Both the position numbers and the translations under genes were made by a program. Below are positions 4,907-61,942 of a stretch of DNA of 64,000 nucleotides, one piece after another (position 1 is the stretch's first letter; each line of letters begins with the position of its first letter). The DNA is from Thermoplasmata archaeon (GTDB taxonomy: Archaea; Thermoplasmatota; Thermoplasmata; UBA10834), in the NCBI GenBank assembly GCA_029864565.1, contig JAOTTD010000004.1:6727-70726 (forward strand), in the 5' to 3' direction. The notes beneath the pieces were generated by a model. It saw nothing but the letters and a program-made list of their open reading frames with translations, searched no databases and was not told the DNA's origin.

Positions 4907-5776
4907 ATGACTGAGATGGTTGATGAGCTCGAAGAGAAGCGCGCTCGCCAAAACGCAGAGGCTGAGAGGCGAAAGCGTCTGAGAGATGAGCTCAACGACA
5001 AGACTCGGCAGTGGGCCGACCAAAGGGATTCACTCAACGCCCAGGTACGGAAGCTCATCGACGAGGCGAACACGCGTCGCGAGAGCCGTGACAAGATGAA
5101 CGCCGAAGTCAGGGAAGCCAAGGCAAAGAGGGACGAGTGGAACAGGAAGTTCAACGAATGCTCCGAAAAGGTCCAGTCATTGAGACGCGAGAAGATGCCC
5201 AAGGACGGCGTGCCCATTCGCCGGATAAGGGCGGAGCTGAGGGCGCTTGAGAAGAAGCACATGACCTCCGTTATGAGCCCTGACAAGGAGAGGGGGCTGG
5301 TCGAGCAGATATCCTCGCTCTCGGCAAAGCTGCAGGCGATGGAGAGAGAGCTGGAGCAGTGCACGGAAGTCAGGGTCGCTGAGAAAGATGCTCGAGAGGC
5401 CAAGGACAAGGCGGAGGAGTTCCACCTCCAGGTCGCCGAGCTCGCGGAGAAGGCCCAGGCAGAGCACGATGCGATGCTCAAGCTATATGAACAGGCAGAT
5501 GCGCTCCGGAAGGAGGCCGACCAGGCCCAGGAGAAGTTCATCGAGACGAAGCTGGCCGCCGATGAGGAGCACAGGGAGCACATAGAGCATATCCGCCAGG
5601 TGCATGATTTCGACAAGCTGATTGCAGGCATCCGTGACAAGTCGAGGAGGGCAAAGCGCGAGAAGGATGAGACTGTTGCCAAGAGAGAGGCTGAGGATAT
5701 CTTCGAGCGCTTCAAGAGCGGAGAGAAACTCAGCACAGACGATATCATGGTCCTCCAGAAATCCGGCTATCTATAG
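4907..5776 (+). CDS. Conserved archaeal coiled-coil protein (COG1340-like)
   Basis: 289 aa of continuous heptad-like E/K/R/A-rich sequence, matching the size and composition of the archaeal coiled-coil family as I recall it. Ends in TAG. Confidence 0.55.
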   Translation: MTEMVDELEEKRARQNAEAERRKRLRDELNDKTRQWADQRDSLNAQVRKLIDEANTRRESRDKMNAEVREAKAKRDEWNRKFNECSEKVQSLRREKMPKDGVPIRRIRAELRALEKKHMTSVMSPDKERGLVEQISSLSAKLQAMERELEQCTEVRVAEKDAREAKDKAEEFHLQVAELAEKAQAEHDAMLKLYEQADALRKEADQAQEKFIETKLAADEEHREHIEHIRQVHDFDKLIAGIRDKSRRAKREKDETVAKREAEDIFERFKSGEKLSTDDIMVLQKSGYL

Positions 5777-6076
5777 CCTGCAGTCGCAGCAGATGAAACG
5801 AGGGTCTAAAATGGAAACGTCTGACACCATCCCCCAGAAGATGCTGGTAAGGGGCCTCTGAGGTAGGTTTCATATGGAATCTATTTATAGTTGGATTTCG
5901 ACAAGTTTATATAGTGCACCACCAATATATCAGTTGGGAAATTTTGGGCTAGTTGTTAGAGTGCATCCCATCCCTTCTGACAAGGCTAGCCCTTCCCTTC
6001 CCTTTTTTTGTAAGTTTTCGAGCCTTGCATAAGCTATTTATCCAACTCCCATGCTTAGTGCGACGGGACTGCGTCC

Positions 6077-7417
6077 ATGGTGCTGGAAGGCCTCGGAAAG
6101 TCGTTGAAAGACGCGATCAAGAAGATAGCGAACGCGTCGCATGTAGACCATGAGCTGGTTAAGGATGTCGTCAAGGACGTCCAGAGGGCTCTTCTTCAGG
6201 CTGATGTGAATGTCAAGCTCGTGCTCGCAATGACCAAGAACCTCGAGAGGAGGGCGCTCACCGAGAAACCGCCTGCGGGGATGAGCTCAAGAGAACATGT
6301 CATAAGGATCATTCACGAGGAGCTCGTGGGGATTCTTGGCAAGTCCAAGGAGATTCCAGCGAAGCCGCAGCGGATCCTCATGGTCGGACTCTATGGCCAG
6401 GGCAAGACCACGACGGCTGGCAAGCTCGCCAAGGACCTACACAAGCGAGGCATGAGGGTCGGCTTGGTGGCAGGCGATGTACATCGACCTGCTGCCTACG
6501 ACCAACTTGTCCAAATCGGCAAGAAGATCAGCGTGCCAGTGTTTGGTGATCCCGAGTCCAAGAGCGCCATATCGGTGGCCAAACGAGCTCTCAAGGAGTT
6601 CGACGGATATGATGTCATAATCTTCGACACCTCTGGGAGGCATGCCCTCGAAGCCGACTTGATTAAGGAGATCAAGACGGTCGCGAAGGCCGTTGACGCA
6701 GAAAACAAGATACTCGTGCTCGACGCGCAGACAGGGCAGCAGGCGGGGCCACAGGCGAAAGCGTTCCATGACGCCGTTGGCCTTACAGGGGTCATTCTCA
6801 CCAAGATGGATGGCACGGCGAAGGGTGGTGGCGCGCTCAGCGCCGTGGCGGAGACCGGCGCTCCAATCGCGTACATCGGCGTAGGCGAGCATCTCGAGGA
6901 CCTTGAGAGGTTTGACCCTGACCGATTCATCAGCAGGCTTCTCGGCATGGGGGACATCAAGGCGCTCATAGAGGCTGCCAGCGAGGTAGTGGACGAAAGA
7001 AAGGCCGAAGAGGCCGCCAGAAGACTGATGTCCGGCAAATTCACGCTCAGAGACATGTACGACCAGATGGAGATGCTTCAGGGAATGGGCCCGTTCAAGA
7101 AGCTTGCGTCGATGCTCCCAGGCCTGGCTGACAAGCTCACAGAACAGGACGTTGAGTTGACGCAGGAACGGCTTGCTCGATTCCGTGTGATAATGGATTC
7201 GATGACCGAGGAGGAGTTGGAGAATCCGAAGATGATCAAGTCCGCGCGGGTCACCAGGATAGCGAGGGGAAGCGGGACCACGACCAAGCAGGTCAGGGAG
7301 CTTCTCAAGCAATACGATGCATCGATAAAGGCCATGAAGGGGTTCTTGGGCAACAGGAAGATGCGCAGACAACTAATGAAGCAATTCAAGGACTTCGAGC
7401 CGGCCAAGGGGGCGTGA
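6077..7417 (+). CDS. srp54: Signal recognition particle protein SRP54
   Basis: N domain, G domain with GLYGQGKTTTAGKLA, DTSGRH and TKMDG motifs, and a Met-rich M domain (MLQGMGPFKKLASMLPG). Confidence 0.95.
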   Translation: MVLEGLGKSLKDAIKKIANASHVDHELVKDVVKDVQRALLQADVNVKLVLAMTKNLERRALTEKPPAGMSSREHVIRIIHEELVGILGKSKEIPAKPQRILMVGLYGQGKTTTAGKLAKDLHKRGMRVGLVAGDVHRPAAYDQLVQIGKKISVPVFGDPESKSAISVAKRALKEFDGYDVIIFDTSGRHALEADLIKEIKTVAKAVDAENKILVLDAQTGQQAGPQAKAFHDAVGLTGVILTKMDGTAKGGGALSAVAETGAPIAYIGVGEHLEDLERFDPDRFISRLLGMGDIKALIEAASEVVDERKAEEAARRLMSGKFTLRDMYDQMEMLQGMGPFKKLASMLPGLADKLTEQDVELTQERLARFRVIMDSMTEEELENPKMIKSARVTRIARGSGTTTKQVRELLKQYDASIKAMKGFLGNRKMRRQLMKQFKDFEPAKGA

Positions 7418-11564: not shown

Positions 11565-11639
11565 GGGCCCTTAGATCAGTGGAAGATCGCTTCCTTCGCA
11601 AGGAAGAGGCCGTGGGTTCAAATCCCACAGGGTCCACCA
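11565..11639 (+). tRNA. tRNA-Ala (anticodon CGC), CCA encoded
   Basis: The cloverleaf folds by hand: acceptor GGGCCCT/AGGGTCC with the G3:U70 alanine identity pair, D stem GATC/GATC, anticodon stem CTTCC/GGAAG with loop TTCGCAA, and T arm GTGGG-TTCAAAT-CCCAC. 72 nt plus CCA. Confidence 0.93.
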
Positions 11640-26273: not shown

Positions 26274-26583
26274 TGCTAGGCTCGACCGGGACGTTCGGCG
26301 TGTCCTTATACACCAAAATCGTCGACAGTGGGGGTGACAGCTGGGGACGTCGTAACCGAGTCTGCGTAGGTCCAGGTATCGACAATGAGGCCTTGTCCAA
26401 GGGGGTTGAAGGTGGCTCTGTGTCCAGCTGGAGGGCGGGACTCTCTGACTTTGTCGCGGGGATCGGGTCAGGCCCTGACGGGAACAGCCTTACCGCGAAC
26501 TCTCAACGCTCCTAGGGTAGCGGGGCCGAGAAGATATCTGGGCTGCCTGCGTGAACGAGGCCGGCAACTCCAGTGGCCTAGCA
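26274..26583 (+). ncRNA. Signal recognition particle RNA (7S / SRP RNA), ~310 nt
   Basis: The 5' TGCTAGGC pairs with the 3' GCCTAGCA. The 5' segment GCTAGGCTCGACCGGGACGTTCGGCG resembles archaeal 7S 5' ends as I recall them. A helix-8-like segment GGGTCAGGCCCTGACGGGAACAGCC compares with the bacterial GGTCAGGTCCGGAAGGAAGCAGCC. No credible ORF, and a TATA lies upstream. Ends are accurate to about +/-5 nt. Confidence 0.75.
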
Positions 26584-41947: not shown

Positions 41948-42105
41948 GTGTGCATCAACCGATATCCTAGGGCAGATTTGGCAGCATCAATGGCCTGCTC
42001 TTTAAGGCTTCCTACCAACAACGTGCGTTGCAGGTTGGCGCGGCCAGGATAGGTGAATCGAGGCATGTTGGGAGGCTTGACATTCATAATATGACCTTTT
42101 CATAC

Positions 42106-42120
42106 AAAATGTGACATTTT
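42106..42120. promoter_or_regulatory. Palindrome AAAATGT-G-ACATTTT next to a TATA-like box (TTATATA, 42129-42135): candidate operator
   Basis: Read directly. Lies about 70-85 nt upstream of the likely RHH start (42190). TGACAT-type half sites also occur at 42078-42083 and 42144-42149. Confidence 0.35.
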
Positions 42121-42189
42121 CCATATCATTATATACAAATGTATGACATATCGTCAACTCGCGTCAAAAAGCCGGGATGGGATGCACAC

Positions 42190-42573
42190 ATGTCTGAAGT
42201 GTTGGAGAACGAGAGGATAACGCTGCGGCTCGATTCCGACATACTGAAACTCATGGATGAGTTCGTCTCGAGCAGCCGTGAGTTCTCCAACCGATCTCAG
42301 TTGGCCCGCGCGGCCGTCTCCGCATATCTGGAGGCAAAGGCCGCGGGAACTGAGGAGGGAACGCATGGGAAGCCCAACGAGGTGGTGGTGCAGATGCCGC
42401 CGCTCGTGTTCGACACGGTTTCCCATCTGGTGGACGAGGGTATATACAGCTCTATATCAGAGGCGCTGGCAGATTGCGCCAGGCACCAGTTCCTCCACGA
42501 GGAGCACGTGGAGGCGGTGAAGAAGGATGCCGTCCAACAGAGAAGCGCGATGAAAGTAGTTCCCAAGGCATGA
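42190..42573 (+). CDS. Tandem ribbon-helix-helix (CopG/Arc/MetJ-type) DNA-binding protein
   Basis: There are two RHH-like units: ERITLRLDSDILKLMDEFV...NRSQLARAAVSAYL and VVVQMPPLVFDTVSHLVDEG.YSSISEALADCARHQFL. ORF track start 42139; the Met at 42190 fits the TATA position. Confidence 0.6.
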   Translation: MSEVLENERITLRLDSDILKLMDEFVSSSREFSNRSQLARAAVSAYLEAKAAGTEEGTHGKPNEVVVQMPPLVFDTVSHLVDEGIYSSISEALADCARHQFLHEEHVEAVKKDAVQQRSAMKVVPKA

Positions 42574-42672
42574 AAAAGGCACCGCTTTGAGGGCGCATTG
42601 TCCGACAGGGGGGTCTCTCGTAAGGGGGGCCCTCTCGCTGTCGGCCGATGAAGAAACGGAGGCCAGCAGGAA

Positions 42673-43464
42673 ATGACAGAGGAAGGGAGCAAAGTTGGAG
42701 ATTTGGTCAACGCACTCGGTGTCACTCTGGGAGAGCCAGCAATTGCGGTTGTGGGATGCGGCGGAGCTGGGTCGAACGTCGTCCACAGCATATACTGGGA
42801 CTCGAACAGGATAGAGACCGTTGCCGTAAACACTGACGAGGAGCACCTGCGAAAAGTGGATGCGCACAAGAGAATCCTAATAGGGAAGGATGTCACATTC
42901 GGCAAGGATACGAGCGGCTTCCCCGAGATTGGAGAGCACTGTGCAGATAAGGCGCGTCAAGTCCTCCGTGAGGCGCTCAGGAACTACGACATCATCTTCG
43001 TCGTCGCCGGAATGGGCGGTGGCACGGGCACAGGCGTCTCGCCTGTGGTCGCGACCGTGGCGAAGGAGCTGAACGCTCTGACCTTCGCGCTTCCGATAAT
43101 GCCCTTTGCAGTCGAGGGTCACGAAAAGACACGCATAGCTAATGATGGCGTTGGAAAATTGAGAGCCTTGGCGGACTTCACCGTGGTGCTCGACAACAAC
43201 AAGCTGGCTGAGATGGATGGTGCAAGAGACCTCCCGATGTCTGAGGCCATGAAAGTCATAGAGCGGAGCATAGTCAAGATTGTCCAGACCATAAGCAACG
43301 AGACGAGCTCCTACGTGAACACACTCATGCACGACATCTCTGGATACGCTGACGCAGTTGAAGAGCCGCTTGTGATGCCTCCAAACGAAGTCGCAGGGGA
43401 GCAGCTGATACACGTGGACCTGATGCCCACCTTCGATGATTTCGGCCCGAATATGTTCGGCTGA
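42673..43464 (+). CDS. FtsZ/tubulin-superfamily GTPase with N-terminal domain only (263 aa)
   Basis: GCGGAGSN (T1) and the tubulin signature [10 protein letters not shown] (residues 113-121). A T7-equivalent segment VNTLMHD at 215-221 has the first Asp replaced by Leu. The protein ends 42 residues later, so the C-terminal beta-sheet domain is absent. Confidence 0.8.
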
Positions 43465-43632: not shown

Positions 43633-44745
43633 TTGTTCGTGGCCACCAAGATAGGTTTCGTAGTCAATCCCATCGCAGGCATGGGCGGGCGTGTAGCCCT
43701 CAAAGGCACTGATGGCACTGAAGCGCGGGATGAGGCGGTCAGGCGCGGGGCAGTGGCGTGGTCGCCTGGAAGGGCAAGGCGGGCTCTGAAGGCTCTGCTC
43801 GCAAAGCGACTCGACCTTGACATCCTCACATGCTCGGATGAAATGGGCGAGCTCTTGCTCGATGAGGAGGGATTTCAACCGGAAGTGGTTTGCCACGCCG
43901 CTCCTGAAACGACGGCTGAGGATACCAAGAGAGCGGCGAGGGCGTTTCTCGAAAGAGGAGCTGACCTGCTACTGTTCTGCGGAGGCGACGGCACCGCGAA
44001 GGACATAGTCGAAGTGGTCGACAGTAGGGTTCCGATCGTGGGAATACCGGCAGGCGTCAAGATGCATTCATCCGTGTTCGCCGTGCGCCCGGAGGAAGCA
44101 GCCGATCTCGTGGAATCGTATGTCAGAACGGGGAAGACAAGGGACGCCGAGGTGATGGATATTGACGAGAACGACTTCCGCCGAGGAATCTCGAATCCCA
44201 GGCTTTTCGCTCTTGCGCTCGTCCCCGATGACGAGAGGCATTTGCAGGCCTCGAAGTCGGCGTTTCAGAGCCTTACGGCGTCCGATGAGGCCGAGGAGTT
44301 GGCAGTCTACGTGGTAGAAACGATGAAGAGCGGAGTCCTCTACATCATCGGGCCCGGCAGCACCACACAGGCGATCGCCATGGAGATGGCACAGGACAAG
44401 ACTCCATTGGGGGTCGATGCATATCTAGATAGAGAGCTTGTCGCCCAGGACCTTTCGGAGAATGACATTCTCGCGCAGATCAGAAGACATCCAGAAGCAG
44501 TGATAATCGTCACGCCGATAGGCGCCCAGGGGTTCATATTCGGACGAGGAAACCAACAGATCTCCTCGGAGGTGATCCGGGAGGTCGGGCTCGAGAACAT
44601 CATTGTCGTCGCGACACCGACTAAGCTCAACGGCACCGCGACGTTGCGGGTGGACACGGGCGACAGCGCTCTGGACGTGAGCCTTCGAAAGCCATTGAAA
44701 ATCCTGACGGGCTATCGCAGAAGGAAGCTGGTCGGCGTCGTCTGA
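43633..44745 (+). CDS. ATP-NAD kinase family protein (COG3199-like)
   Basis: KIGFVVNPIAGMGGRVALKGTDG and LLFCGGDGTAKDIV..VPIVGIPAGVKMHSSVF. TTG start. Confidence 0.75.
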   Translation: MFVATKIGFVVNPIAGMGGRVALKGTDGTEARDEAVRRGAVAWSPGRARRALKALLAKRLDLDILTCSDEMGELLLDEEGFQPEVVCHAAPETTAEDTKRAARAFLERGADLLLFCGGDGTAKDIVEVVDSRVPIVGIPAGVKMHSSVFAVRPEEAADLVESYVRTGKTRDAEVMDIDENDFRRGISNPRLFALALVPDDERHLQASKSAFQSLTASDEAEELAVYVVETMKSGVLYIIGPGSTTQAIAMEMAQDKTPLGVDAYLDRELVAQDLSENDILAQIRRHPEAVIIVTPIGAQGFIFGRGNQQISSEVIREVGLENIIVVATPTKLNGTATLRVDTGDSALDVSLRKPLKILTGYRRRKLVGVV

Positions 44746-59526: not shown

Positions 59527-60918
59527 CTAGAAATCCGCAAGGCTTCGTGATTTGCGCCCATTGCTCTTGCCGCTCGCTTCCTTCCGCTGGAGGAATCCTT
59601 CACCCGAGCTCATTCGTCTAATGTTGGCCATGGCATCACTGACTTCTTCGGAGCCGGGATCGGTTCCCAGAAGATAGGCGATGTCTCCTTCATCCAGACT
59701 CGCCTCCGCGCCAATGCTGGCGAGCAGTTCTTCATCCAGCTTCACCATGGTCGACAGGTAAGGCAGTACCGAACTGCCCACGCGTTTGACTGACGTGTGA
59801 AGGATGGGAGATAGTTTCGAACACAGCGCTGCCCGCGACGCCCGGATGGATTTGGAGCGAGACATCACGATGAGGTAGCTTGGAAAGCCATACCTGGATT
59901 TGCGTTGCCTTCTCCCGCCTTCGCGCGCAAGAGAGACTCCGGCGGTCATCAACTCCTTCGCGTATGACCAGAGACCGTAATGTTGTAGCATCCGAGTTCG
60001 TCTCAGGTATATGTCCGACCGGGATAGGGCGTCGAAGGCAGCAGCCATCTCGGACGGCGTTTTGAACTCCTGCGGTATGCTCTCTTCGACCCAAAGTATC
60101 AGCTCATCCGGAGTCTTGTCTAAGTTCAGGGTAGCGTTCCTAGCATCCTTGACAGAAGTGGCTTCGAACATATCGTCCAGGGCAATCTGGAGCTCCACTT
60201 CCTGATTCCTCTCGCCCAACGCGTCGGCGTCGCCCACGCCGATGCTCTGCCGGCCTTCGATGAGCATCTGCAGATCGTTTATCGCCCCTCTCATGTCGCC
60301 GCCAGCGTTTATCGCCACCTTCTCGAGCACCGCCGCGTCCACATCAAGCCCTTCCTCTGAGCATATGCCCGCCAGCACCCCGATAACGGATTTATCCCAG
60401 AGCCTGGAGAAGTTAACCTTCTCGGCCAGAGTCTTTACGGCCGATGCTTTTCTGGTTAGAGCGTAGTAATCGTTCACGATGAGGATTATGGGCTGACTAG
60501 TCTCTCTCAGCGTCTCGCTTATCGCCTTGGCTCCGCCGTAGTCCTCCCTCCCGAAAAGGTTGTCAGCCTCGTCGAGCACAATCAGCTTTCGTTTGCCCTC
60601 CGCGGTTGTCAGAAACTCCCCGCTTTCCGAGAACGTCTGGCTTATAGAACCGATCCCCGCAACTCGCCTTATCGATTCGGCGTTTCTGTGGTCGGATGCA
60701 TTCATCTCGATTATATCCCATCCGTAGTCGTTCGCCAGCGCGAGAGCGGAACTCGTCTTGCCTGTTCCAGGCTCGCCGCTCAGCACAAGTGCCTTCTTTC
60801 TTGGGATGCCGTTCTTCCAGGAGTCCGCCCACCGCCTCATGGACCGAACCGCATTGTCATTACCCTCAACCTGGGATAGAGACGTCGGCCTATACTTCTC
60901 AGTCCACTCTTCGCTCAT
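59527..60918 (-). CDS. rfcL: Replication factor C large subunit
   Basis: WTEKYRPTSLSQVEGN, Walker A LSGEPGTGKTSSALALA, and LDEADNL. ORF track start 60939; the Met at 60918 is likelier. Confidence 0.9.
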   Translation of the reverse strand: MSEEWTEKYRPTSLSQVEGNDNAVRSMRRWADSWKNGIPRKKALVLSGEPGTGKTSSALALANDYGWDIIEMNASDHRNAESIRRVAGIGSISQTFSESGEFLTTAEGKRKLIVLDEADNLFGREDYGGAKAISETLRETSQPIILIVNDYYALTRKASAVKTLAEKVNFSRLWDKSVIGVLAGICSEEGLDVDAAVLEKVAINAGGDMRGAINDLQMLIEGRQSIGVGDADALGERNQEVELQIALDDMFEATSVKDARNATLNLDKTPDELILWVEESIPQEFKTPSEMAAAFDALSRSDIYLRRTRMLQHYGLWSYAKELMTAGVSLAREGGRRQRKSRYGFPSYLIVMSRSKSIRASRAALCSKLSPILHTSVKRVGSSVLPYLSTMVKLDEELLASIGAEASLDEGDIAYLLGTDPGSEEVSDAMANIRRMSSGEGFLQRKEASGKSNGRKSRSLADF

Positions 60919-61066
60919 CTTCTTGAGATGTATAGACAACCTGTATTATAGAATGACACCGAGGGAGGTGAAGCGTGGCAAAACTGCGACTGAAATCGCG
61001 ATGAACAGCACGCAAGTGTAAAAGTATCTGTGGAAGATGTTTGAGATTAATGTTTTTATGTACCAG

Positions 61067-61942
61067 CTAAACATCACCCGAGACGATGTAATAACTCGTG
61101 TGGCTGGAAGCCATCTCGCCGGACGTTTTGTCCGAGTCATCCAAGCGCTCCTTGCTGTCCGATATCTCCATGCCTGGTAGTCTGTGCTTGGAGTATTCCT
61201 CCTTGCGATCGTCGATATCCATAGTTAGGTATATCGCCGTGACTTCTATGCTGGAGTGTCCCAGGTTTTGCTGGAGCGTTCTTAGGTCTATGCCTGATTT
61301 CAACGCGTGAACCGCATGAGTATGCCGCAACACGTGCGGATGCCTCTTGTCTTTATCCAGACCGACTTCGGACCCATACTTGTGTATGAGCCGTTCTATC
61401 TGGCGTCTGGACAGTGGTCCTCGTTTGTTCGATACGAAGAGCGGGTCCTTCCTGTTCTTACGTGTACCGATGTAGTCGCGCAGCATCGTCTTGGTCCAAC
61501 CATTGACGATAGGCACCTTGCGTCCCTCGCGATGCCTCTTCGCATGCTGAACCGTGATCTCGCCCGACTCAAGATCCACGTCACCAATTGTCAAGGCCGC
61601 TAACTCGCCGACCCGTATCCCGGTCTCGTATAGCATCTTGATGATCAAGCGGTCTCGCATGCGCCTAGGCGCCTCGAGCAAGCTTTTCAATTCTCCTTCC
61701 TTGAGATACTTTCGCATGGCGGGTCCCATCCCTTGAATCATGCAGACGAATGTCCGACAATCAATCGATTTGTGCCTATTTAAAAATGTCGTATTTTCCG
61801 GCGAAAACGCCCTGGGGCGCGACACTCCCTTCGGTAACCCCCAAAAAGCGTCAACAAATGCCCTATTTGTTGCCGTTTCCTGCCAATCGACCTTCTCATT
61901 TGCCTTATCCAGATGTAGAAGGCGACACAAAGCATGATACAA
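61067..61942 (-). CDS. Tyrosine recombinase / integrase (Xer-like catalytic domain, short atypical N-terminus)
   Basis: The catalytic set is readable: ETGIRVGE (Arg), HVLRHTHA (His-x-x-Arg), GHSSIEVT (His) and AIYL (Tyr). Confidence 0.8.
   Translation of the reverse strand: MYHALCRLLHLDKANEKVDWQETATNRAFVDAFWGLPKGVSRPRAFSPENTTFLNRHKSIDCRTFVCMIQGMGPAMRKYLKEGELKSLLEAPRRMRDRLIIKMLYETGIRVGELAALTIGDVDLESGEITVQHAKRHREGRKVPIVNGWTKTMLRDYIGTRKNRKDPLFVSNKRGPLSRRQIERLIHKYGSEVGLDKDKRHPHVLRHTHAVHALKSGIDLRTLQQNLGHSSIEVTAIYLTMDIDDRKEEYSKHRLPGMEISDSKERLDDSDKTSGEMASSHTSYYIVSGDV

Follow-up and report, generated by a model that had tools for sequence, protein, structure and literature searches.

Introduction

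The cdrS-ftsZ2 operon, known in Halobacterium salinarum and Haloferax volcanii, places a small ribbon-helix-helix (RHH) gene directly upstream of, and in the same orientation as, a gene of the FtsZ2 clade (Darnell et al. 2020, PMC7439475; Liao et al. 2021, PMC8406309). It is the closest known system to the locus described here, which lies in a 64,000-nucleotide (nt) stretch of a Thermoplasmata archaeon genome (GCA_029864565.1, contig JAOTTD010000004.1, positions 6,727 to 70,726 of the forward strand; below, "the window", with positions counted from its first letter). The locus is a paralogous, truncated variant of cdrS-ftsZ2. It shares the upstream, co-oriented RHH gene, whose product is homologous to the FtsZ2-linked RHH protein that matches the CdrS model, but the FtsZ that follows, which we call half-FtsZ, lacks the T7 loop, helix H8 and the C-terminal domain. 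In addition, the RHH protein of the window is a tandem double unit of ~125 amino acids (aa) rather than a single unit of ~58 aa, the operon is a second, paralogous copy that exists beside a canonical RHH-FtsZ2 operon in the same genome, and, unlike CdrS, which is described as a wider regulator, its predicted operator appears private to its own promoter.

By analogy, half-FtsZ would functionally most resemble engineered bottom-face capping mutants of FtsZ and the cappers MciZ and MipZ; the predicted logic in each case is that the growing (bottom) end of a filament is occupied and addition is blocked at low stoichiometry (for the mutants and MciZ, PMC8936486, citing Du et al. 2018 and Bisson-Filho et al. 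2015; for MipZ, PMC9897490). Unlike these, the putative cap is a natural, conserved FtsZ paralog and not a point mutant, an unrelated peptide or an ATPase. Shortened FtsZ paralogs standing alongside another FtsZ also occur in the Hyphomicrobiales, although these are bacterial, of independent origin and without a dedicated RHH regulator. Reportedly, only the C-terminal linker and peptide are missing from them, the globular core of FtsZ being retained in full. According to one study, Agrobacterium FtsZ1 is such an extra, shortened paralog beside an essential FtsZ and is proposed to tune division, with continuous expression inhibiting it (PMC13732431). Closer to the window, uncharacterized Thermoplasmata FtsZ-like sequences branch near FtsZ2 (PMC9723716); they may or may not be the same proteins as half-FtsZ. 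A description of the half-FtsZ family was not found in the full-text literature, subscription-only reviews lying outside that search.

Half-FtsZ keeps the nucleotide pocket and ends after helix H7

The two genes at the center of this analysis are the following.

42190-42573, plus strand: tandem-RHH regulator (127 aa), a paralog of the FtsZ2-linked CdrS-like protein (Pfam, NCBIfam, hhalign)

42673-43464, plus strand: half-FtsZ (263 aa; PF00091, partial TIGR00065 match, AlphaFold2, orthologs, tree)

The original prediction, made from the sequence alone, had described the second gene as a 263-aa FtsZ/tubulin homolog with the T1 motif and the tubulin signature but only the GTPase domain, and our searches bear this out. 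The protein consists of a GTPase domain (residues ~24-181), a long H7 helix (189-229) and a disordered tail (231-263). Pfam Tubulin (PF00091) matches residues 24-181 at 2.2e-36, T1 (GCGGAGSN) and T4 (GGGTGTG) are both found, and the Pfam search returned no match to FtsZ_C (PF12327). The match to the TIGR00065 ftsZ model is confined to positions 18-204 of 353 and scores 187.7 bits against a curated cut-off of 295.2; the genome's seven full-length FtsZ proteins all exceed it (337-430 bits). When aligned with these paralogs, half-FtsZ is collinear through helix H7. At the T7 position it reads N-T-L-M-H-D where the canonical sequence is N-L-D-F-x-D, confirming the earlier reading of this segment (VNTLMHD) as one in which Leu replaces the first acidic residue. 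The protein then ends ~40 residues past the T7 position. The earlier claim that no C-terminal domain follows also stands: tblastn with the FtsZ1 and FtsZ2 C-terminal domains of the same genome found no match downstream in any frame (best E 0.3), and none elsewhere in the window. Half-FtsZ is thus not a canonical FtsZ, as it lacks the C-terminal domain and the T7 loop and falls below the curated score.

Structure prediction gives the same picture. The AlphaFold2 model (51 homologs) has a mean predicted local distance difference test (pLDDT) score of 75.7, with a confident GTPase domain, and the T7-equivalent segment is modeled as an extension of helix H7. Foldseek searches of the PDB with this model retrieved FtsZ structures only, with ~189-210 columns aligned, equal to half of each target, and a TM of ~0.54 by target length; the model is that of the N-terminal domain only. 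M. jannaschii FtsZ (1w5e) matches half-FtsZ at 1.3e-37.

Comparison of the short proteins with one another shows which parts have been kept. Among members that are 31-47% identical, the nucleotide-pocket motifs T1 (GxGGAG), T2 (NTD), T4 (GGGTGxG), T5 (PFxxE) and T6 (N) are invariant or nearly so, while in the T7 region neither the Asn nor the first Asp is conserved. The tail carries two conserved motifs, LIH(A/V)DL and FGPxMFG (LIHVDL and FGPNMFG in the window protein), and across several short-FtsZ subfamilies it varies in length and holds an [LI]-H-A-[DSN]-[LIM] motif and a terminal G-x-x-hydrophobic motif. Half-FtsZ therefore keeps the GTP-holding face. Its nucleotide pocket is intact, it retains H7 and a flexible tail that bears short conserved motifs, and it has lost the opposite face formed by T7, H8 and the C-terminal domain.

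Two other tubulin-superfamily groups were considered. The structures 4b45 and 4b46, which the search output labels FtsZ but which we take to be CetZ structures, match half-FtsZ at 2e-8 and 4e-7, against 1e-37 for FtsZ. A CetZ identity was rejected, since these matches are far weaker than those to FtsZ and the C-terminal domain is missing. The original prediction had also raised possible membership in the N-domain-only FtsZ-like families proposed computationally. Half-FtsZ is like FtsZl1 and FtsZl2 (Makarova and Koonin 2010) in being a divergent member of the tubulin superfamily without a canonical FtsZ C-terminal domain, known from computational description. Those families match Tubulin_2, occur alongside membrane-remodeling genes and in most cases add an extended coiled coil plus an alpha-helical C-terminal domain (PMC2875224), whereas half-FtsZ ends in a short disordered tail (33 residues) and scores below the Tubulin_2 (PF13809) cut-off (0.0034, 17.1 bits against 27). 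It does not belong to either.

The short form and its RHH neighbor are conserved across Thermoplasmata

We examined 301 genomes from the same Genome Taxonomy Database (GTDB) class, 39 of which belong to the window's own family. Half-FtsZ has a match in 38 of these 39, and the best 36 cover the query almost end to end. More than 120 homologs in protein databases are 245-288 aa long and 60-91% identical to it; all match PF00091 and none FtsZ_C, and the close relatives are labeled Thermoplasmata or Methanobacteriota archaeon. Twenty more distant loci from other families encode short FtsZ proteins of 234-312 aa (34-51% identity), and distant orthologs across Thermoplasmata, Methanomassiliicoccales included, span 226-312 aa. 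A profile search of 1.84 billion representative proteins found at least ~25 short clusters (≤300 aa, 50% identity) among the top 150 matches. The top profile matches of 731-840 aa, considered as tandem half-FtsZ proteins, proved to be two fused canonical FtsZ proteins and were rejected.

The RHH gene travels with the short FtsZ. All 30 fetched family loci have an RHH gene, a short FtsZ gene and an NAD-kinase-like gene in this order, and an RHH open reading frame (ORF) of ~120-155 aa lies within 400 nt upstream on the same strand for 16 of 19 distinct distant short proteins. Among the three exceptions, one has an RHH gene at ~600 nt and another, located where a 3.8-kb contig ends, is uninformative. 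When single genomes were scanned for every tubulin-family gene, short FtsZ and RHH were found in 12 of the 14 Thermoplasmata families covered; the scan did not find short FtsZ in the two representatives of the others (f11 and f19). The locus itself is chromosomal, lying between leucyl-tRNA synthetase and metabolic genes, and its synteny is stable.

These comparisons bear on two doubts that the original prediction had raised about itself, that the gene might be a truncated pseudogene of a full-length FtsZ and that its pairing with the RHH gene might be coincidental. No ortholog in close or distant relatives is a full-length FtsZ, and the RHH neighbor recurs throughout. Judged by sequence conservation, half-FtsZ is a conserved gene and not a truncated pseudogene, and the short orthologs and conserved neighbor support the idea of a diverged regulator-cytoskeleton module.

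A whole RHH-ftsZ2 operon was very probably duplicated

Five FtsZ1-type proteins, whose C-terminal peptides include GIDFVR, are encoded in the same genome, as are SepF and two FtsZ2-type proteins. The latter are 92% identical, and each gene follows one for a 104-aa tandem RHH protein that matches the CdrS model (1.6e-17; 63 bits, below the cut-off of 100). This linkage is general: in all the genomes examined an RHH gene was never seen upstream of an FtsZ1-type gene, every clearly FtsZ2-type gene in the scanned Thermoplasmata has an RHH gene of one type ("Z2") upstream, except those for two atypically long proteins (553 and 672 aa), and short FtsZ genes are nearly always preceded by a second type ("S").

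To place the short proteins we built a maximum-likelihood tree (IQ-TREE, LG+G4+F) of the GTPase domain only, with 61 sequences and ~203 aligned residues per sequence. M. jannaschii FtsZ1 served as reference and Staphylococcus epidermidis FtsZ as the single bacterial outgroup, both copied from tool alignments, and FtsZ2 was sampled from Thermoplasmata only. In this tree the short proteins form one clade (SH-aLRT 97.4, UFBoot 98) nested inside the RHH-linked FtsZ2 clade (100/100). An LDN in T6 and a Cys after T3 are common to short FtsZ and FtsZ2, and FtsZ1 has neither. The regulators tell the same story, as hhalign aligns the half-FtsZ-linked and FtsZ2-linked RHH proteins with 98.3% probability (E 1.7e-14), the 87 collinear columns covering both units. 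Outside Thermoplasmata, FtsZ2-linked RHH proteins are single units of 58-61 aa.

Because the short clade lies inside RHH-linked FtsZ2 and the two RHH types are collinear, we conclude that a whole operon was duplicated and that the FtsZ of one copy lost its polymerizing half. Specifically, we are highly confident that the predicted two-gene operon of the window derives from duplication of an entire tandem-RHH(CdrS-like)/ftsZ2 operon in an ancestor of Thermoplasmata, after which the FtsZ copy lost T7, H8 and the C-terminal domain. The simplest history suggested by the sequences would have CdrS become a tandem RHH protein in Thermoplasmata, followed by operon duplication and then by loss of FtsZ past H7.

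The 127-aa RHH protein fits this history. Its residues 9-48 match Pfam RHH_1 and its residues 63-123 match RHH_8, both slightly below the curated cut-offs, in agreement with the earlier reading of two consecutive RHH-like units, and 151 homologs of 120-172 aa were found. The NCBIfam CdrS model NF058555 matches in two stretches (4.5e-8; 33 bits against a cut-off of 100). Because this score is below the cut-off while the protein is collinear with the FtsZ2-linked RHH, it is, by these comparisons, probably a paralog rather than an ortholog of CdrS. The original prediction had drawn a parallel with the haloarchaeal CdrS/CdrL-ftsZ2 arrangement. The tree and hhalign show the CdrS homology to be real; CdrL is not the relative, and it is reported only in Halobacteria (Darnell et al., PMC7439475). 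Translation starts at ATG 42190 and not at the in-frame ATG 42139, because the latter abuts the TATA box and orthologs align from 42190. Two RHH units in one polypeptide are also a feature of TraY-type proteins, where they could form an intramolecular pseudo-dimer that reads one half-site pair. The likeness is one of architecture, and no specific sequence relationship is detectable.

Several observations on other FtsZ genes were made along the way. The FtsZ complement of the genome is unusually large (contigs C69, C36, C4 and C9; loci L001-L007, outside the window), and its FtsZ1-type genes are arranged as one tandem pair, one divergent pair and one single gene. The two RHH-FtsZ2 copies lie near contig ends and may be a true duplication or assembly strain heterogeneity. 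A further FtsZ-like family of ~300 aa is encoded on contig C30 of the same genome (~60700-61650, minus strand, outside the window) and also at L214, L215 and L216. The G-box of this further family is degenerate (GLGGVSGSLG), its PF00091 match is weak (49.8 bits), FtsZ_C stays below threshold and there is no RHH neighbor; members are found in several families of Thermoplasmata. In two sister genera of the window's own family (G123, G094, G116 and others), many FtsZ2 matches contain a single in-frame TAG close to the alignment's C-terminal end, which is most likely a natural stop codon past which the alignment runs.

The operon has a conserved promoter with operator-like boxes

Nucleotide-level conservation extends over the 110 nt 5′ of the RHH start codon in each of the 29 family loci with a complete upstream region. 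Five elements can be recognized in the window.

42078-42097, plus strand: upstream TGACAT box (42078-42083) and degenerate copy of box 1 (TATGACC, 42090-42096), by sequence reading

42106-42120, plus strand: box 2, a 7+1+7 palindrome, AAAATGTGACATTTT, the likely main RHH operator (family conservation, genome uniqueness)

42128-42137, plus strand: TATA box (TATATATAC in the family consensus), by family alignment

42142-42149, plus strand: box 3, TATGACAT, immediately 3′ of the TATA box, by family alignment

42161-42189, plus strand: conserved initiator and 5′ untranslated region (UTR), GCGTCA...GGGATGGGATGCACAC, abutting the start codon, by family alignment

The palindrome (AAAATGT-G-ACATTTT, 42106-42120), the TATA-like box (TATATAC, 42130-42136) and the additional TGACAT sites (42078-42083 and 42144-42149) are all located where the original prediction put them. 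The family consensus reads GTATGACAT-N12-AAATGTGACATTT-N8-TATATATAC-N4-8-GTATGACAT-...-TGCGTCA-...-CGGGATGGGATGCACAC-ATG, with three TGACAT boxes spaced ~21 and 32-33 nt apart. Box 1 is TATGACAT in the other two genera of the family, ~100 nt 5′ of the start codon, and has one or two mismatches in the window's genus. In box 2, AAATG(T/A)GACAT is kept in all 29 complete upstream regions, across RHH proteins that are 55-93% identical. Box 3, 32 nt from box 2 in the window, is an exact TGACAT in 24 of 30 family loci and one or two bases off in most others. Boxes 2 and 3 flank the TATA box, which is invariant in position and near-invariant in sequence across the family loci. The predicted layout of the boxes around the TATA box is that of an archaeal autorepressor operator. 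The core of the palindrome, AATGT[GC]ACATT, occurs once in the 1.93-Mb genome, and only three TGACAT-N26-28-TGACAT pairs exist there, two of them in the RHH promoter; because of this, the RHH regulator looks dedicated to its own operon.

The initiator and 5′ UTR (42161-42189) are likewise conserved at the nucleotide level in all family loci. Since the upstream ATGs lie out of frame, the conserved 5′ UTR is noncoding. A 14-mer within it, GGGATGGGATGCAC, has three copies in the genome against ~0.01 expected by chance: at 42174-42187 (plus strand) and 5961-5974 (minus strand) of the window and on another contig of the same genome (C2:23714, plus strand). The two copies outside the RHH 5′ UTR share GTCAGAA(C)GGGATGGGATGCACTCTAAC(T/A)AC and lie in intergenic DNA; the one at 5961-5974 sits between an ORF at 4907-5776 and SRP54 (6077-7417).

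The spacer between the two genes is conserved and structured

The RHH and half-FtsZ genes are separated by a GC-rich spacer of 99 nt with a conserved Shine-Dalgarno sequence. No TATA-like box and no plus-strand terminator-like site were found within it, an arrangement that indirectly suggests possible co-transcription of the two genes.

42578-42664, plus strand: intercistronic stem-loop with closing helix GGCACCG x CGGAGGCC (folding, family conservation)

In the family, both the spacer length (91-107 nt) and the boxes at its two ends are conserved, and the 3′ end is an invariant CGGAGGCC, which contains the Shine-Dalgarno sequence GGAGG (42658-42662). The window stem-loop has a minimum free energy of -44.3 kcal/mol (z -2.7), and each of four diverse spacers folds into a long hairpin (-42 to -44 kcal/mol, z -1.9 to -3.2). 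Of 25 sequences, 21 form the closing helix, in which the Shine-Dalgarno box is paired with the invariant box that follows the RHH stop codon. The RNAalifold consensus is weak (-3.75 kcal/mol), and covariation support is weak as well, with four pairs showing compensatory changes. Translational coupling or occlusion by the spacer RNA may occur, and we treat it as a lead.

A possible role for half-FtsZ at filament ends

Half-FtsZ probably regulates division filaments rather than building them. As to how, we tentatively favor, at slightly less than an even bet, a GTP-loaded cap or inhibitor of FtsZ filament ends that is expressed under RHH autoregulation. An FtsZ filament grows at its bottom end, where T7 is exposed and to which monomers attach by their GTP-bound top face, and bottom-interface mutants of FtsZ are toxic (PMC8936486, citing Du 2018 and Redick 2005). 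In the proposed mechanism, half-FtsZ would bind GTP, present a normal top (nucleotide) face and dock by this face onto the T7-bearing bottom end of a filament. Once docked it would offer no bottom face, so that the next subunit could not add and half-FtsZ would act as a substoichiometric cap or assembly inhibitor of FtsZ2 or FtsZ1 protofilaments. Alternatively, it might sequester monomers in dead-end heterodimers. The T7 loop of the partner could hydrolyze the GTP of the cap and release it, making capping transient, and the conserved tail motifs might tether half-FtsZ to a partner such as SepF. Binding of the RHH protein to the three TGACAT boxes flanking the TATA box would autoregulate the operon and keep the dose low, and half-FtsZ translation may be restrained further by structured spacer RNA pairing with the Shine-Dalgarno sequence.

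Several observations weigh against this proposal. The T3 loop, which belongs to the top face and senses the gamma-phosphate, is relaxed in the short family and poorly modeled; docking onto filaments may therefore be altered. The main counter-evidence lies in the distribution of partners. One complete genome (G166) has three FtsZ1 genes and half-FtsZ without RHH-FtsZ2, and in a Methanomethylophilaceae-like family (f6) all five complete genomes scanned have half-FtsZ and lack FtsZ1. In three of these five, the sole other tubulin-family protein is an RHH-linked FtsZ2-like protein of 279-285 aa (L188, L189 and L190; genomes G070, G199 and G079), which keeps the G-box and the C-terminal domain but has T7/H8 deleted and no C-terminal tail. 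A GTP-timed cap cannot work as described in such lineages, where the FtsZ2-like protein is T7-less. SepF is present in three of four such reduced complete genomes. Archaeal FtsZ C-terminal peptides bound by SepF have a near-invariant GID motif (Pende et al., PMC8178401), which is seen in the FtsZ1 tails of the same genome. Because the half-FtsZ tail lacks the GID motif, SepF binding is a guess. On the regulatory side, the AlphaFold2 model of the RHH protein has a pLDDT of 53, too low to confirm an intramolecular RHH pseudo-dimer, and pairing of the Shine-Dalgarno sequence (0.70) was not above that with shuffled upstream sequence (0.67); only the constancy of its partner, the box following the RHH stop codon, stands out.

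Some of these same points favor a different role, which we judge unlikely but worth serious attention: half-FtsZ as a GTP-binding switch or adaptor that works independently of filament ends, its GTP state recruiting or releasing a partner through the tail motifs; examples might be division-site selection or a link to SepF or to ESCRT-type machinery. Retention of half-FtsZ without RHH-FtsZ2 in G166, and without FtsZ1 where the FtsZ2-like protein lacks T7, fits such a switch, as do the relaxed T3 loop, the presence of two short conserved tail motifs in several subfamilies and the retention of SepF in most of the reduced genomes. However, the family descends from a filament-forming protein, half-FtsZ stands alongside both FtsZ1 and FtsZ2 in most lineages, and the operon has no second conserved companion gene throughout the class.

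We consider it improbable that half-FtsZ and FtsZ2 (or the FtsZ2-like protein) form an obligate heterodimer or mixed polymer in which half-FtsZ is a structural subunit, loosely like alpha/beta-tubulin. FtsZ2 is its closest paralog, the two are under parallel RHH control, and three of the five complete f6 genomes retain just half-FtsZ and one FtsZ2-like protein. Yet without a bottom face half-FtsZ fits the end of a filament only and never its interior. Complementary loss fails too: we had considered a split in which half-FtsZ would supply the GTP site and the reduced FtsZ2-like protein the T7 loop, and rejected it, since the latter keeps its G-box and lacks T7, like half-FtsZ.

A broader idea seems to us equally doubtful. 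Here half-FtsZ would be more than a brake: a GTP switch specific to Thermoplasmata and independent of hydrolysis would have it as its conserved core. Where FtsZ1 has been lost and the FtsZ2-like protein is T7-less, as in Methanomethylophilaceae-like genomes, half-FtsZ, the FtsZ2-like protein and SepF would then make up a minimal non-treadmilling system for division or membrane organization, with each FtsZ-type gene under its own tandem RHH.

The order of boxes, DNA-binding gene and tubulin-fold GTPase resembles tubC-tubR-tubZ, and with three to four TGACAT boxes and a conserved C-terminal tail one could imagine a TubR/TubZ-like or ParR-like cassette that positions DNA, in which the RHH protein on centromere-like boxes recruits the GTPase through its tail. 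This is very improbable and was rejected on synteny and phylogeny: the locus is chromosomal and stably syntenic, inheritance looks vertical and within FtsZ2, the boxes straddle the TATA box as in an operator, and half-FtsZ lacks the domain needed for polymerization. For the same reasons of context and placement, and with only a marginal TubZ match (4xcq, E 5e-4), half-FtsZ was rejected as a TubZ. Finally, although half of the protein and the T7 loop are gone, there is next to no chance that half-FtsZ is a decaying, non-functional remnant of a duplicated ftsZ2, a reading effectively refuted by its conserved length, pocket residues invariant down to 31% identity, presence in 12 of the 14 families examined and conserved promoter, Shine-Dalgarno sequence and tail.

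To our knowledge, FtsZ regulation in archaea is poorly understood, and we know of no endogenous filament-capping factor there. If the capping proposal is true, half-FtsZ would be a natural, class-wide paralog with a top but no bottom face, which is what laboratory bottom-face mutants mimic, and it would make the polarity and turnover of filaments in archaeal division directly accessible to study. The locus also indicates that the cdrS-ftsZ2 regulatory module can be duplicated and specialized as a unit, and the retention of half-FtsZ where canonical FtsZ is reduced or absent raises the question of what a lone tubulin GTPase domain does. The named public carriers among the matches listed are uncultured Methanomassiliicoccus, Methanomassiliicoccales and Methanomethylophilaceae genomes; cultured Methanomassiliicoccales may allow testing.

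Neighboring gene and other features of the window

Downstream of half-FtsZ, after a gap of 168 nt, lies one further gene.

43633-44745, plus strand: NAD-kinase-like gene (370 aa; Pfam NAD_kinase and NAD_kinase_C)

It follows half-FtsZ in 30 of 30 family loci and 6 of 20 distant loci. It is probably a separate transcription unit, and its proximity may reflect either ancestral synteny or a functional link. Elsewhere, the window contains an archaeal signal recognition particle (SRP) RNA (26274-26583, plus strand, 167 bits) and one tRNA (11565-11636, plus strand), both ordinary.

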